A DNA stretch of 64,000 nt from Octopus vulgaris (Eukaryota), in assembly GCA_951406725.2 (NCBI GenBank), contig OX597824.1, positions 23,746,001 through 23,810,000 on the forward strand, given 5' to 3'. A program made the position numbers and the translations under genes. Position 1 is the stretch's first letter; each line of letters begins with the position of its first letter. Of this stretch, positions 1,247-63,618 are shown piece after piece. The notes below the pieces were generated by a model that saw nothing but the letters and a program-made list of their open reading frames with translations, had not been told where the DNA came from and searched no databases.

Positions 1247-1324
<78 letters not shown>

Positions 1325-1334
1325 ATATAGAAGG

Positions 1335-1432
1335 AGCTTCTACAGGACTAGAACTGTTTCATTCAAGAGAAATCTTCAGGAAGCTTCCTGAAGATTTCTC
1401 TTGAATGAAACAGTTCTAGTCCTGTAGAAGCT
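1335..1432. ncRNA. Type I hammerhead ribozyme encoded on both strands of a perfect 128-bp palindrome (1320-1447)
   Basis: + strand: stem I AGCTTC (1382-87) / GAAGCT (1427-32); CTGAAGA (1388-94); stem II TTC-TCTT-GAA with a T.T closing mismatch; GAAA (1407-10); stem III CAG/CTG; GTA cleavage triplet ending at 1426. The mirror copy lies on the - strand at 1335-1385. Confidence 0.75.
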
Positions 1433-1515
1433 CCTTCTATATAATAAATTAATTTTACTCTGCTCTGTATTGAGTACCTTATTTACTGTGGTTAACCCCG
1501 AATCAACCCGGGACC

Positions 1516-1603
<88 letters not shown>

Positions 1604-2197: not shown

Positions 2198-2247
2198 TGG
2201 CGATTTTTTTCCTCCGTCTTCCCTTCTCTGGATCTTTCCTTTTCCTA

Positions 2248-2284
2248 TGTTTCTGACGAAGAGCTCCGCTCGAAACGTAAAACA
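2248..2284 (+). ncRNA. Minimal type I hammerhead ribozyme (PLE-type)
   Basis: TGTTT CTGACGA A GAGC-TCC-GCTC GAAA CG TA AAACA. Stem I is 5 bp, stem II 4 bp, and stem III is reduced to palindromic ACGT, as described for PLE minimal HHRs. Lies within insert 2197-2385 between TA tracts. Confidence 0.85.
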
Positions 2285-2380
2285 GTCCTTCTTCCCTTCC
2301 TTCCTGAGCGTCCAATAATACTATATTTGTTCCACGTCCCCGCGTTGTTGTGTTTTCTCTTGGTATTTTCATGTTTGGGT

Positions 2381-2417
<37 letters not shown>

Positions 2418-3578: not shown

Positions 3579-3690
3579 CACACGAGGGCACTGCATGAGT
3601 ACCTACATCGCTAAAAATAGAAGTCAGAATTACTTCTGTGCCACGACTTGTATTTTTAGCGATGTCGGCGCTCGTGTAGTACCCTCGAGT
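3579..3690. mobile_element. Short hairpin MITE (mariner-like CGAGGG termini) in a TA context
   Basis: About 42 bp of imperfect pairing between GAGGGCACTGCATGAG...AAGTC and GACTT...GTACCCTC, flanked by TA repeats. Confidence 0.55.
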
Positions 3691-31557: not shown

Positions 31558-31750
31558 TATATCTTTGAAGACTCATATTTTCGTTGAATGCTCGAAATGA
31601 GGAGCAGATAGACAACTGACAACTGATGAAGGGTCCTTTCTCTTTGTTTATTTGTCCTGTTTTCCATTTTTTCTCTCGTTATTTACGTATTTAACTCCTT
31701 TGTCTACGTATTTCATGTTGTTTCCAGGTGACGTTCTGTACCCATATATG

Positions 31751-31810
<60 letters not shown>

Positions 31811-31923
31811 TGTATAGAGGGCATTATTACACATAAATGCCTCACACTGAGAGGGACAAAGTCATTACTACCAAAATTACACTAATCATACTTTATTAAG
31901 AAGTTATCCTTAATTGTTAAATT

Positions 31924-33594: not shown

Positions 33595-33963
33595 AGACAC
33601 AAGGCTTTATATTTGTGGGGAGGTGGGTAGTCGATTACAAAAGGCACTTATTTTATCGACCCTGAAAGGATGAAAGGCAAAGTTGACCTCGGCGGAATTG
33701 GAACTCAGAACATAGCGGCAGACGAAATACCTATTTCTTTACTACCCACAAGGGACTAAACACAGAGGGGACAAACAAGGACAGACAAACGGATTAAGTC
33801 GATTACATCGACCCCAGTGCGTAAATGGTACTTAATTTATCGACCCCGAAAGGATGAAAGGCAAAGTCGACCTCGGCGGAATTTGAACTCAGAACTCAGC
33901 GGGAGACGAAATACCGCTTAGAATTTCGTCTGGCTTACTAACGATTCTGCCAGCTTCCTACCT
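33595..33963 (-). mobile_element. SINE family B dimer
   Basis: Two AAAGGATGAAAGGCAAAGT units joined at GACGAAATACCTATTTC. Confidence 0.85.
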
Positions 33964-33984
33964 TAATAATAATAATAATAATAA

Positions 33985-34015
<31 letters not shown>

Positions 34016-34049
34016 AAGAAGAAGAAGAAGAAGAAGAAGAAGAAGAAGA

Positions 34050-34784
<735 letters not shown>

Positions 34785-39426: not shown

Positions 39427-39499
<73 letters not shown>

Positions 39500-39510
39500 T
39501 TATTTATTTT

Positions 39511-39591
39511 ATAGAAGGAGCTTCTACAGAACTAGAACTGTTTCATTGAGTACCTTATTTACTGTGGCTAACCCCGACTCAACCCGGGACC

Positions 39592-39595
<4 letters not shown>
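39511..39595 (+). mobile_element. Deleted copy of the 1320-1520 palindromic HHR element
   Basis: ATAGAAGGAGCTTCTACAGAACTAGAACTGTTTCATT is joined directly to GAGTACCTTATTTACTGTGG...CCCGGGACCTAC. Confidence 0.9.
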
Positions 39596-39647
<52 letters not shown>

Positions 39648-39814
39648 AAAAATAGGATAAAATCTTTAAGAATTTATCAAGCGTGAAAAACCTCATAAGA
39701 GAAAAAATTCACCAATTTTTTCACTTAAATATATTTATTTATATTATATAGAGGGCATTACTATACATAAATGCCACACGCTAGGAGCGACTCTTAAAGT
39801 CAAAACTACCAAAG

Positions 39815-39868
<54 letters not shown>

Positions 39869-44553: not shown

Positions 44554-45034
44554 CCCTCTGTGTGTGCGCGCCTTTTCATGACTGTGTTAATATGTCTGGT
44601 ACGTGATGCACATGTATGCAGACCACACATATATTTGTTTTTTCACAAATCAATCACATGCCAATAGTTTAAGTAGATTGGACATGTTTCTCTGTTTCCT
44701 TTCTTTTTATGTTGAATCTCTCAGCAAAGCGAAGTAATAGCTTGTCCGACATGTAACACTATGTATGTATGCATATATGTATGCATGTATATATGCATGT
44801 ATGTATGTATGTATGTATGTATTCGTACATGTGGCCTATGTGTCTATTTATCTATCTATCTATCTATCTATACAGACAGACAGACACACGGACACACGTA
44901 TGTTTGCGTGTCTGTGGTGCTTCTATATCTGTGTGCATGTATGTATGTATTGCCATTTATGTATATTCATCTATACACATTCATACAAAGAGATATAATA
45001 TGTATGTGTGTGCATATAAGAGTGTACAAAAATG

Positions 45035-45232
45035 TATACACAGTGAGAAGAGCTTTGACAGGAATTCCTACATGCTAAAAAGTGCAGTTAAACCCATACC
45101 ACGAAATAATTTCTAAAGGCACGTCGATAATGGCGTATTATTTTTTTCGTGGTTTAGGTTTGACTGCACTTTTTAGCATGTAAGAAATCCTATGAAAGGT
45201 TTTCTATCAGTGTATAAATCTTTATACACTCC
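45035..45232. repeat. Inverted pair of 3' ends of the 1860-2168 element family
   Basis: CATGCTAAAAAGTGCAGT / ACTGCACTTTTTAGCATG arms; both align with 2048-2165. Confidence 0.8.
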
Positions 45233-45248
45233 TATATATAAAAAAAAA

Positions 45249-45643
45249 CTAGCAGTATCGCCCGGCGTTGCTCGGATTTGTAAGGGAAATAACGATATAA
45301 ACATTTTTAGAGATGTAAAGTATAATAGCCATCTCAATATGGCTAACCACAAAGGTGTTACTGTAGCTTTTTACGTTCTGAGATTTAAAAATACATTTTG
45401 AGAGAGTTACTTCCCTTATATAATAGCGAAAAAATGCATTAAAAATGGGAAAAAATGATGGTAAATTTTTTTTTTAATCGTAGACTCATCGTAGACGCGC
45501 GCTAATAGCCAGACGGGCTCGATATGAATTACGACTATAAGATACCCGAATTTGGTTAAACTGCACCGCAAAATGTGGGAGGAGTTAGGAATCTAAATCG
45601 TAGGAGACAGACACTCACACAACTACAGTTTTATATATATAGA
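45249..45643 (-). mobile_element. Non-autonomous Helitron, subfamily variant
   Basis: Same TC... and hairpin-CTAG termini as the 15311 copy, with a different internal segment. Confidence 0.85.
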
Positions 45644-53430: not shown

Positions 53431-53841
53431 ACTATTTTTGACTTACTCTCGTACATAAATGTGTATGTATGCATGTATGTATGTATGTATGTATGTATGT
53501 ATGTATGTATGTATGTATGTATGTATGTATGTATGTATGTATTATAGGCAGCGCTGAAGACTTATTGTATAATGAATTTGAATGCATATATATTAAAACC
53601 TTGTCTGAGTCCCGCATTATTTAAAGTTTCGTAGACGTAAATCAACGACTCACTCATCAGACAGTTTGAGATTCCAAGGCAACCGATTCGTTAGCGGATG
53701 ATTTACGTTTATGAATCGCCAAGCAATGCGCGACTCAAATACTCACTTAATACTTACATACATACATTATTACAAATACTTACATCATATATGTGCGCAT
53801 ACACATACAGACACTCGTACGTACACAAACACAAACACACA

Positions 53842-54752: not shown

Positions 54753-55199
54753 AGACCAAAGTGTACGTACGTCGCTATATAGAGATTATCTTCGCAATTT
54801 CGGCTGATTATTCTTGAGATTGCTCCAATCTGGCAATCCACAAGGAAAAACTAAGCTAAGAGCATTAGATTCATTTAAAGAAAGCAGCGAATGTATACAA
54901 AAACAAGAACGGAAAAAAACGGACAATGTTAGACAAGAATAATCAGCCGAAATTGCGGGGATAATCTGGTACTTGACTGAGGAAAGAAAACTTCGAATGA
55001 CCCGTCCTTGCTTTCTTTGTATCGTCTATCTGGATGTTTTGTAGTCCCATTTTTTATCACCTAGCTGTCTGGATGTTTTGCATTCTTGTCCTATTTTATA
55101 TTTTATATATATATATATATACAATAATAAATCTCTGAGCGAGATATAGACAGTAACTGCTCTATAACAGCCACATTCAGATGGCTGATCCCCCTTATG

Positions 55200-56326: not shown

Positions 56327-56368
<42 letters not shown>

Positions 56369-56469
56369 GGAGTAAAATATAAATGTGAAACAAGGTGGAA
56401 AAAAAGAGTACTCAAATACCAGTGGTAGAGTAATATGCTTATTTAAAGCAGCAGAAAATTCAACAAAAT

Positions 56470-56507
56470 CTGTTACTCTGAGTTTCTCGTTGCCGTTCAT
56501 CAGACAG
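56470..56507 (-). ncRNA. Minimal type I hammerhead ribozyme at the axis of a 133-bp fold-back (56439-56571)
   Basis: Minus strand: CTGT CTGATGA A CG-GCAA-CG A GAAA CTC-A-GAG TA ACAG. The 64-bp arms have one mismatch and a 5-nt loop GACAG. Confidence 0.7.
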
Positions 56508-56572
56508 TGATGAACGGCAACGAGAAACTCAGAGTAACAGATTTTGTTGAATTCTCTGCTGCTTTAAATAAA

Positions 56573-56620
<48 letters not shown>

Positions 56621-57289
56621 GGTAAAAAGAACACAAACTGGGACAAGAACGTGAAACATTTTGAAGACGGACAAAAAAACACACAGTCATCAGTCAAGAA
56701 CCAGATCATCTTCGCAATTTCGGCTGATTAATCTTGAGATTGCTCCAGAGTAAAAGATTAAAAAAGTATATATATATATATATATATTTGGAAAGAAAAT
56801 AATAAAAAATTAAATAAAATCACTGCTTTGATCATAAATCTCTTCCTTGAAATTTAACCTGGGGCTAAACGACGTCGCATTAAAACAACATCGTAGAGAC
56901 CACAACAACAGCATGAACACACTTGCATACACACGTACATACACATACACACACTCGCGTATCCCACTTTATACGCACTTTGACACACATAAGCTATTAA
57001 TATGACTGACCACACGTATATTTGTATACAAACGTTCCCACGCAAATATTCATACACGTTCTCATGAACATGGTCTGTCTTTTTCTCCGTCTCTCTTTCT
57101 CACTCTCTCTCTCTCTCTCTCTTTCTTTTTCTCTCTCACACACACAGACACACACATACATATATATACACTCTTTTCACTACCTCGCTCTTTCTTTCAC
57201 TCTCTCTCTTTCTCTCTCGTTCTCTGTCTCTCTTTGTCTCACTCTGTCTCTCTCTCTTGCTCTCTTTCTTTCTACTCTTTACCTCGCTA

Positions 57290-61239: not shown

Positions 61240-61584
61240 GGCAAAATGTCTGCGTGTTTGCCCTTTATACAAATCCATAATTTTTCAGTTAGCGTGCTCG
61301 CACTTATGGTCATTCAAAACTGTCCAAGGGTGGTCGTGCACATCTTTACATTTCCCCAGTCACCCCGCAAAGCCATTAAAAAATCAGTAGAAGTGAGTTT
61401 TTTGCGAATTTTCTACCCAAAACCCAATCAAAATGCCCGAAATTTGATACGCTAATTGAATGCCAGCTAACTGTATGGTGATTGGTCGGAGATTTGGACA
61501 GTACTCGCGTGTATGAGCGCACGCACGCAGCTGAATATGCATGCACTAGCACTATGACCCGGCAACGCCGGGTCATAGTGCTAG
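61183..61584 (+). mobile_element. Non-autonomous Helitron (second family)
   Basis: 5' TC + (TA)n + AAACGGC...; 3' hairpin CCCGGC-AAC-GCCGGG then TGCTAG|T. The 5' boundary is approximate. Confidence 0.65.
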
Positions 61585-61603
61585 TATACATATACATACA
61601 CAC

Positions 61604-62134: not shown

Positions 62135-62443
62135 GAATTTTTTATTTGTTTGAGCCATTTGACTATGGCCATGCTGGAGCACCGCTTTGAAGTGTTTTTT
62201 TCCGAACAATTCTAGTTCATAACTAGATTTTTTTAAAGTCTTAGTATTTATTCTATCGGTCTCTTTGCTGCTGCTTGGCAAGCTATGCGGGTTGGTGGTG
62301 GGGAGGACAAACACAGACACACAGACACACATACACAGATACATACATATATAGAAACGACGGGCTTCTTTCAGTTTCCGTCTACCAAATCCACTCACAA
62401 TGTTTTGGCCGGCCCTAGGCTATATAAGAAAACATTTGCCCAT
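62135..62443 (-). mobile_element. SINE family A (5'-truncated)
   Basis: Family A motifs on the minus strand. Confidence 0.8.
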
Positions 62444-62823
62444 TGAAGCCTCAAACACCTATGACGGGGCTTTAAAGGAAGCAGTTTCAGGTGTTCTCGC
62501 ACGAAAGCCATGTTTTCGAGGATGCGATTTCTGCTGGTTTTCGATACACGAGGAAGTTCAGAGATGGTGAAAATAACTTTGCTTGTTTGTCCAGGTTTCC
62601 CACGTAACTTGCGGTCAATATTCGTTAAACCTCTAGCTGTCACCATCTTGGAGGTCCCACAATCGGGTCGTTTCTTCCTTGGTGAAGGGTGCTTCAGGAA
62701 TCGTCTAATCGTATCCACATGACAACGTAACTTTTCTGCAATTACATGAAGAGAAGTGCCTTTAGCATTTTCCTTGACGATGACAGGCTTTTCTTCATCT
62801 TTAAGGCCTCTTCCGCGTCCCAT
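62440..62823 (-). pseudogene. Tc1-like transposase, N-terminal DNA-binding region (truncated by a SINE)
   Basis: MGRGRGL...IAEKLRCHVDTIRRFL...PLKPRHRCLRLQWA, i.e. an HTH plus the Tc1-type 'PLxxxHxxxRLxWA' motif. Confidence 0.8.
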
Positions 62824-63618
62824 TGTTCTCAGAGAGGAAAGACGCTATTAGCGCGGTTCACACAAAGCTGAAGAATCTGAAATAAAAAAAGAAACGATGT
62901 TACACGGAATAATGAAAACGTAACAATGGTGTTGCCATAGAGTGCAAACCAGGTGGGAAAAGTTATATCAAAATCGATTCACAGAAAAACGAGAAATCTT
63001 AAATTTCACTCCTAAGTTATTAGCGTGCTTCTGGTTGTATAAGGGCTATTTCATCATGTTGAACCGTTAATCCCTACATCTTTTTTCTCCGTTTTTTCCC
63101 TCCATATCAATTCTTCCCGAGTGTTAAACTAATACACCTGCTTGTTGTTCCTTCACCTGTGTTTGTCTTTTGTTTTCTGTAAGTATATATACCGTAATGT
63201 ATAAGTATTTAACGTACGTGATATGAAACAATTGACACAAAAGAAAAAATGATTAGAAAATTTGAGCCCTGAATAGTGCAAGCTACACTCTAAAGAAACC
63301 CTGTCCTGCACCGAAACTTATTGTAACACTTTCTCAGAGTCGAGCAGTGGATGATATTAGGAGTTGTTAACTTGTTCTTGTGTAATTACATTTATATTAA
63401 TGTACAATATTCCGCAGGTTTACATCAGAATGTCCCTCTTCTAGAAATATGCTCTGGCAACAGCTAAGGTATTTTTAAGTCCTCATTCCTAGGAATTTAA
63501 CGCGATCTGACACCAACTTTATCGCTAACGATTTGTCGAACCGCTAAACAAACGCTTTATATATGATATAAAGTGTAAACAGTACCAATTCTGTTAAGCA
63601 AACAAAAACACATTCACT

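Follow-up and report, generated by a model that had tools for sequence, protein, structure and literature searches.

The window, the whole stretch of 64,000 nt (64 kb) of Octopus vulgaris DNA analyzed here, contains an insert of 207 nt at 56367-56573 that is flanked by TA tracts on both sides. A target-site duplication is unreadable within the (TA)n on either side. The insert forms a hairpin and probably represents a 5'-truncated end of a Penelope-like retroelement (PLE) that inserted into a TA tract. Its parts and flanks are:

56327..56366, no strand: (TA)n target tract on the tail side, called from the sequence
56367..56437, minus strand: one-sided 3' tail of 71 nt, present in the long arm only, adjoining the TA tract and unmirrored in the other arm
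56438..56507, minus strand: long arm, a 5'-truncated element end with the entire minimal hammerhead, defined by sequence pairing
56470..56507, minus strand: minimal type I hammerhead-like motif, read from the sequence with its pairing evaluated; no Rfam match
56503-56507, no strand: unpaired centre GACAG, a 5-nt loop
56508..56573, plus strand: short inverted arm without C3 and tail, ending at a recurrent site that adjoins the TA tract
56574..56617, no strand: (TA)n target tract on the short-arm side, called likewise

The fold-back at 56439..56571, first noted in the first-pass annotation, is genuine. Of the 64 positions in the arms 56439-56502 and 56508-56571, which flank GACAG, 63 are paired and one is mismatched (56456/56554); perfect 46-bp arms have a chance expectation of about 2e-20 in the 64-kb window. 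The right arm extends to 56573 via one extra base, and the same insertion is present in 43 contigs of the public sequencing run X6. One substitution and one indel distinguish the two arms, which argues against a mirror created during assembly. As annotated, the GACAG loop spans C3 (56503) and the 5' strand of stem I (56507-56504) of the minus-strand hammerhead; one arm carries the whole motif and the other, plus-strand arm starts at TGATGA. Junction microhomology at the centre amounts to 1 nt (56508 with 56502). In one contig of public run X1, the native plus strand continues past GACAG as a T run, and the second arm thus agrees with the native sequence in its first base only.

The core elements CUGANGA, GAAA and NUH are present together with helices I-III, helix II being just 2 bp; by motif this is a minimal type I hammerhead. 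Stem I pairs 56507-56504 (5' strand) with 56473-56470 (3' strand) over 4 bp on the minus strand. The 2 bp of stem II are capped by a GCAA loop and followed by GAAA, and stem III is self-complementary (self-duplex -7.4 kcal/mol). The cleavage triplet GUA ends at 56474, placing the predicted cut after this position. A search of the 64-kb window with Rfam gave 0 matches. The hammerhead fold is not the minimum-energy fold of the monomer (-0.4 versus -5.1 kcal/mol), and folding z-scores of -0.1 to 1.3 for the monomer lend no support to a stable ribozyme. Note that a weak monomer fold is customary for such minimal hammerheads (PMC4209133, in the part available). The copy continues for 33 nt beyond the predicted cut, showing that the template was uncut at this hammerhead and that cleavage was not involved. 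For PAc (Poseidon of Anolis), uncut RNA was the main template in vitro (PMC11167929, in part).

The sequence 56367-56507 belongs to a high-copy family, matched by 3791 contigs of X6 and 231 contigs of X1. Its long end was joined to a TA tract in 62 contigs of X6. Position 56439 was joined to a TA tract in 19 contigs of X6, the same junction as that of the short arm at this locus. With two recurrent ends at TA junctions, the 71 nt between them constitute a one-sided tail. The native sequence past the short end begins CATAT. Upstream of the GACAG edge the family sequence is known for about 17 nt from one contig, in which a pyrimidine-rich run on the RNA strand terminates in TAG 10 nt before C3. 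At 56469 both arms share a minority base, the other base accounting for about 65% of X6 depth. The joint at which the strand changes was absent from the X6 and X1 contigs, which carries little weight because contigs drop rare joints; the raw-read runs X21 and X22 gave 7 and 2 matching reads, none across the hammerhead. The family has one copy in the 64-kb window, and a search of metagenomes with a family 28-mer returned 0 loci. An ORF for reverse transcriptase (RT) or GIY-YIG endonuclease was absent from the 64-kb window, and Penelope-like membership rests on structure.

Four copies from hammerhead-bearing families are present in the 64-kb window. Besides the hairpin at 56439-56571, these are:

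1320..1519, plus strand: family A copy, a perfect 64-bp palindrome at 1320-1447 followed by a tail of about 70 nt
39498..39596, plus strand: second family A copy, the reverse complement of 1404-1453 joined to 1469-1520
2198..2384, plus strand: third-family copy with its hammerhead core at 2253 and 55 nt upstream of it, no inversion

The first-pass annotation had paired our hairpin with the palindrome at 1320-1447 as an unrelated family of like geometry. This was borne out, as the two share no BLAST similarity and both turn at the 5' edge of the hammerhead. The axis of 1320-1447, whose arms are identical, falls on AAGCTT at 1383/1384, 4-5 nt upstream of C3 (1388); the hairpin 56439-56571 turns 2 nt upstream of C3. 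The annotation omitted the 71-nt one-sided tail as well as the copies at 39498-39596 and 2198-2384, which have unlike geometry. The junction in 39498-39596 lies inside stem II, with 3 nt of microhomology and non-overlapping arms; the ends of the two family A copies are at most 6 nt apart in the same AT-rich patch. In total, 2 of 4 hammerhead-family copies in the window turn at the edge, and 2 of 3 inversions lie within 5 nt of C3. The distance from C3 to the long 3' end is 132 nt (1388), 132 nt (2253) and 137 nt (56503) in three unrelated families. With inserts of only 99-207 nt, many short copies would therefore be expected to stop close to the core in any case. In two of these three families the tail measures about 70 nt, double the published value.

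We compared the locus with known systems. Endonuclease-bearing PLEs have a truncated copy, an adjacent inverted copy, a tail at one end and a palindrome at the junction (PMC3846280; PMC8557442 and PMC8969392, both in part). The junction palindrome has been ascribed to self-priming, as proposed in 2013 (PMC3846280). Like these elements, the locus has a 5'-truncated and an inverted truncated copy head to head, an AT-rich or (TA)n target and an extension at one end. Unlike them, it comprises about 140 nt of element and no ORF, and its tail of about 71 nt, versus 30-40 bp, is bounded by two recurrent 3' ends. It further shares with PLEs a putative hammerhead near the 3' end and dispersed, high-copy occurrence in TA targets. 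The evidence thus supports a Penelope-like end whose inverted arm arose in the course of insertion and which is akin to the inverted pLTRs described before. The structure as such is already known, and the locus is an ordinary new example. The minimal hammerheads of metazoan PLEs, as far as described in the available part of PMC4209133, likewise have an intact core, a 4-bp helix I, an extra base after A9 and a palindromic helix III suited to dimers. Their helix II differs, with 7-8 bp and G10.1-C11.1, compared to 2 bp (C-G first) here; pairs of such hammerheads occur 100-700 bp apart on opposite strands. Assignment to Naiad is argued against by the complete hammerhead motif, as Naiad lacks a canonical hammerhead; three 11-nt motifs had 0 matches in part of the PMC8557442 supplement.

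PAc resembles the locus in having two start sites that bound the tail, extension of both strands, an AT-rich target and an uncut template, whereas inverted arms are not addressed in the available part of PMC11167929; the link from start site to arm is ours. Non-LTR retrozymes are similarly short and non-coding, with a type I hammerhead and an origin from PLE ends (bioRxiv 10.64898/2026.07.22.740005, in part). For the copy in the window this candidate was rejected, since head-to-tail tandem units are absent there and the locus is a single head-to-head stub. A palindrome of a MITE or DNA transposon was also rejected, as the 71-nt tail makes the ends asymmetric and there are no symmetric terminal inverted repeats. 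LINE-1 inversions are not generally known to double one segment into a near-perfect palindrome. Twin priming as in LINE-1 would not by itself produce the present hairpin, which requires a further fold-back or another template. The shared features are internal priming on the RNA by the second target end and joining of the cDNAs with microhomology (PMC11702581, in part); 39498-39596 is laid out in this way. In a literature search with most subscription papers outside its scope, we found no paper plotting inversion junctions against the hammerhead, nor one on twin priming for PLEs.

The first-pass annotation had suggested that the inversion is triggered at the ribozyme and that a sharp peak of axis-to-CUGANGA distances at about 0-6 nt would support this. 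This distribution was determined for families of other animals, present as host DNA in metagenomes. A generic pattern of two head-to-head hammerhead cores separated by 0-30 nt matched at least 107 metagenome loci; it is blind to junctions that remove C3 (as at 56503) and to turns more than 15 nt from C3. Genuine arms were present in 69 of the 107 loci listed. The remaining 38 were left out, some being chance matches and some hairpins with very short or damaged arms. Mirror arms of just 9-24 nt were seen in L145, L169, L175 and L227, all outside the 69. Control collections gave genuine hairpins in 0/120 and 0/4 viral matches and in 1/114 from prokaryote genomes (the last two together 1/118). 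That single prokaryote-collection locus with long hammerhead-bearing inverted arms (L271) lies on a 5.7-kb contig of an assembled bin and is possibly eukaryotic contamination. Among flank ORFs of at least 85 aa at the comparison loci, 0 of 60 matched RT or GIY-YIG.

Turns within 6 nt of C3 (gap of at most 12 nt) occurred in 20 of the 69 listed hairpins, compared to 28.9 expected for a uniform distribution (P 0.037), a depletion rather than a peak. Counted as distinct junction strings, 16 of 65 turned within 6 nt versus 42% expected, and by cluster the short gaps made up 4/30 in the largest and 16/39 in the rest, again among the matches listed. The scan itself does not deplete short gaps, since 55 of 114 chance matches in prokaryote genomes had a gap of at most 12 nt. 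If a peak held 20% of cases, counts of at most 20 among the 69 listed would arise with P 3e-5. The counts rose with gap size, from 11 (0-9 nt) to 22 (10-19 nt) and 36 (20-30 nt) among the 69 listed, and a broader pile-up further upstream is thus possible. Copies in the flanks, which were unselected for geometry, turned within 15 nt of C3 in 0 of 7 cases (95% upper bound 41%). These were judged by reading, leaving aside internal tandem units and L226, where 19 nt remain before the edge of the locus. Turns lay about 84 (L135), 88 (L150) and 119 nt (L147) upstream of C3, with small loops in L150 and L147; note that the L150 flank turn belongs to the same compound insertion as its anchor. The flank copy in L131 was strongly asymmetric, and those in L136, L157 and L170 did not turn in the vicinity of the core.

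Of the 69 listed loci, 38 were assigned a tail, using motifs derived from the same loci. The median arm from C3 to the short end in these 38 was 97 nt among the matches listed. Target duplications of at least 7 nt were found in 18 of the 38 tailed loci listed (shuffled mean 2.0, maximum 5), and 17 of these 18 had tails of 29-45 nt. By a strict rule, the arm reaching further was the tail-less one in 3 and the tailed one in 3 of the 38 listed, with 7 symmetric and 25 uncalled. A looser rule gave 9 tail-less, 5 tailed and 8 equal among 22 listed, some of these calls being doubtful (L144). Turning points differed among copies within one family. Loop-free centres were seen in 8 of the 69 listed, six of them on self-complementary 6-nt words as at 1383, and may result from end-to-end annealing of two cDNAs. 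Near-symmetric centres were frequent wherever the turn fell, an automatic outcome of fold-back. Arm divergence correlated weakly and not significantly with loop size (rho 0.19, P 0.12, listed loci). Identical junctions recurred in L203/L204 and in L128/L217/L220; these repeated junctions coincide with self-complementary words or with microhomologies of 2 nt. No single 3' splice-site (YAG) position upstream of C3 was common to the comparison set. In L209, L138, L150 and L212, non-coding units arranged head to tail come after the hairpin (unit length 262 nt in L209), a layout that links inverted stubs with retrozyme-like arrays.

We propose that the mirror arm was built during insertion by two-ended priming and fold-back, at a point set by a stop in copying and not by the hammerhead, a reading to which we assign a probability of about 0.5. 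An endonuclease would nick both strands of the self-complementary TA tract; cutting and extension of both strands have been shown in vitro for another element (PMC11167929, in part). One DNA end would prime at the outer start site, giving the tailed arm, and the other at the inner start site, giving the tail-less arm, as the two recurrent ends suggest. One cDNA would then stop, fold back with little homology and be extended. The resulting sense copy could anneal to the other cDNA and bridge the break, fill-in producing the palindrome. At 56439-56571 it would be the tailed cDNA that folded back, leaving the 5-nt loop. When neither cDNA folds back, end joining would yield non-overlapping inversions such as 39498-39596. 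We infer all of these steps from end products.

In favor of two-ended priming, both outer ends recur at TA junctions, in 62 and 19 contigs of X6, and we give this reading even odds. In PAc, likewise, two RT start sites flank the tail and extension takes place on both target strands (PMC11167929, in part). Two-ended priming with fold-back of either cDNA accounts for the fixed short end, the near-symmetric centres and a tail-less arm that reaches further; a single fold-back from the tail-primed cDNA alone cannot produce the last of these. Several points weigh against it. The observed fold-back register amounts to one base pair and is unfavorable (+2.9 kcal/mol), and deletion of the palindrome centre between the same microhomologies would give both polarities. 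The polarity counts are small, including doubtful loose calls such as L144. An RT gene is linked neither to the 56367-56507 family nor to the comparison loci (0/60 ORFs), and the 71-nt tail exceeds the published 30-40 bp. According to PMC11167929 (in part), priming needs no homology, and the two strands showed no difference in start site. Moreover, the comparison families come from other animals, and 2 of 3 inversions in the window turn within 5 nt of C3.

Two such turns had led the first-pass annotation to propose a trigger at the ribozyme, for example by stalling of RT, here taken to occur at the 5' edge of the folded ribozyme, by template switching or by self-priming of the cDNA at stem I. 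Two unrelated hairpins do turn 2 and 4-5 nt upstream of C3, and in a DNA fold the end of the cDNA is able to adopt the pairing of stem I. However, priming by this pairing (56504-56507 with 56470-56473) predicts a restart at 56469, whereas the second arm starts opposite 56502, which rules out this route for the present copy. Stalling is also difficult to reconcile with the order of copying: RT would meet the 3' side of the ribozyme first and unwind it before reaching C3, so that a stall is expected at the opposite edge. The monomer hammerhead fold is weak, mutants of the core left insertion products unchanged (PMC11167929, in part), and the 69 listed comparison hairpins lack a peak at 0-6 nt. 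In the window, 39498-39596 joins inside stem II and the 2198 copy passes the core by 55 nt uninverted. A trigger at the ribozyme is therefore very improbable, and the hammerhead is probably not what causes the turn, a conclusion based on families of other animals and on the window copies. Template switching or fold-back as such is retained in our account, but is not specific to the ribozyme. Alternatively, a fixed 5' end of the RNA, or a strong stop, located a few nucleotides upstream of the core, such as a transcription start or a 3' splice site at helix I, might pile up turns in octopus families, the ribozyme marking the place without being the cause. The 2 of 3 inversions within 5 nt of C3 in the window hammerhead families fit this view, as do the pyrimidine-rich run terminating in TAG 10 nt before C3 (a single contig), an intron end in Drosophila virilis mapped to the 5' end of helix I (PMC4209133, in part) and the rise in counts from 11 to 22 and 36 with increasing gap (listed loci, gaps up to 30 nt). 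We nevertheless consider it distinctly unlikely, given that 0 of 7 unselected flank copies turned within 15 nt, that YAG positions upstream of C3 do not converge on a single site, that the 2198 copy runs 55 nt past the core and that the native upstream sequence comes from one contig.

Insertion from a single end followed by plain self-priming would explain the present locus equally well. Here the second strand would run to a fixed site, set by the endonuclease cut or by microhomology to the AT-rich target, and later central deletions would create asymmetric junctions. The polarity observed is the one expected, with a longer tailed arm and a 5-nt loop. Both arms share the minority base at 56469, CATAT after the short end could anneal to the TA target, and the mirror arms of 9-24 nt in L145, L169, L175 and L227 resemble the 18- and 38-bp palindromes of pLTRs (PMC3846280). 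The weak correlation of divergence with loop size is compatible with later central deletion. However, each junction at which the tail-less arm reaches further, including the L131 flank and 39498-39596, needs a second event, and zero-loop palindromes persist (8 of 69 listed), indicating that palindrome centres are not deleted quickly. Furthermore, the short end matches an RT start site in the only element tested (PMC11167929, in part). We regard this route as unlikely, though a serious contender. Finally, the hairpin could have arisen once in a master copy and spread ready-made as a palindromic element, or could be an assembly mirror. Identical junctions do recur (L203/L204; L128/L217/L220) and the arms of the family A palindrome are identical, but the arms of 56439-56571 differ at two places, junctions vary within families and between the two family A copies, and the recurrent ones fall on self-complementary words or 2-nt microhomologies. 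Both versions are hardly credible.

Applied to PLEs at large, two-ended priming would mean that the arms of the inverted pLTR start on opposite target strands, one from each of the two start sites on either side of the tail, and that fold-back of either cDNA supplies the sense strand bridging them. The ribozyme would be a bystander, although an RNA 5' end located just upstream may concentrate turns in some families. We offer this generalization tentatively, at somewhat less than even odds. The link to inverted pLTRs drawn in the first-pass annotation survives insofar as the inverted arm was probably made during insertion, but without the ribozyme as its trigger. The formation of PLE inverted repeats is still listed as open (PMC8557442, in part). 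The locus itself is ordinary retroelement debris; the value of such stubs is that they record insertion junctions, and those of the comparison set argue against a ribozyme trigger. A useful by-product is that the arm reaching further at fresh junctions provides a cheap discriminator between one-ended and two-ended priming. This test of junction polarity is applicable to any animal assembly and to the existing in vitro system.

The composition of the window and its abundant SINE resemble those of an octopus genome, and it contains further repeats. The decayed palindrome 53606-53737 (65%) carries a minus-strand CTGATGA core at 53660, without a clear helix III; this core is preceded by the same few bases as in the 56367-56507 family. 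Another TA-tract family, in which no hammerhead was identified, is represented by 54783-55103 and 56618-56766, the former being an inversion with a duplicated overlap of 34 nt in a twin-primed-like layout. At 2421-2630, a near-perfect palindrome of 210 nt (94%; 4-nt loop) that lacks a hammerhead core starts near a TA tract and is MITE-like or like a fold-back of another family. Two older imperfect palindromes, 45014-45237 (77%) and 3584-3686 (73%), are MITE-like. Short G+C-rich hairpins followed by CTAG at 61545-61585 and 45247-45275 presumably resemble the 3' end of a Helitron. A 222-aa ORF after a TAA tract (33887-34555) had no Pfam match above the curated cut-off; we take it to resemble the C-terminal endonuclease region of an R4/Dong-type LINE. 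A fragment of a Tc1/Tc3-like transposase lies at 62395-62844 (PF11427, above cut-off). The short non-SINE inserts in TA tracts at 31563-31753, 39644-39816 and 31804-31923, the last two of which are related, are probably other retroelement 3' ends.
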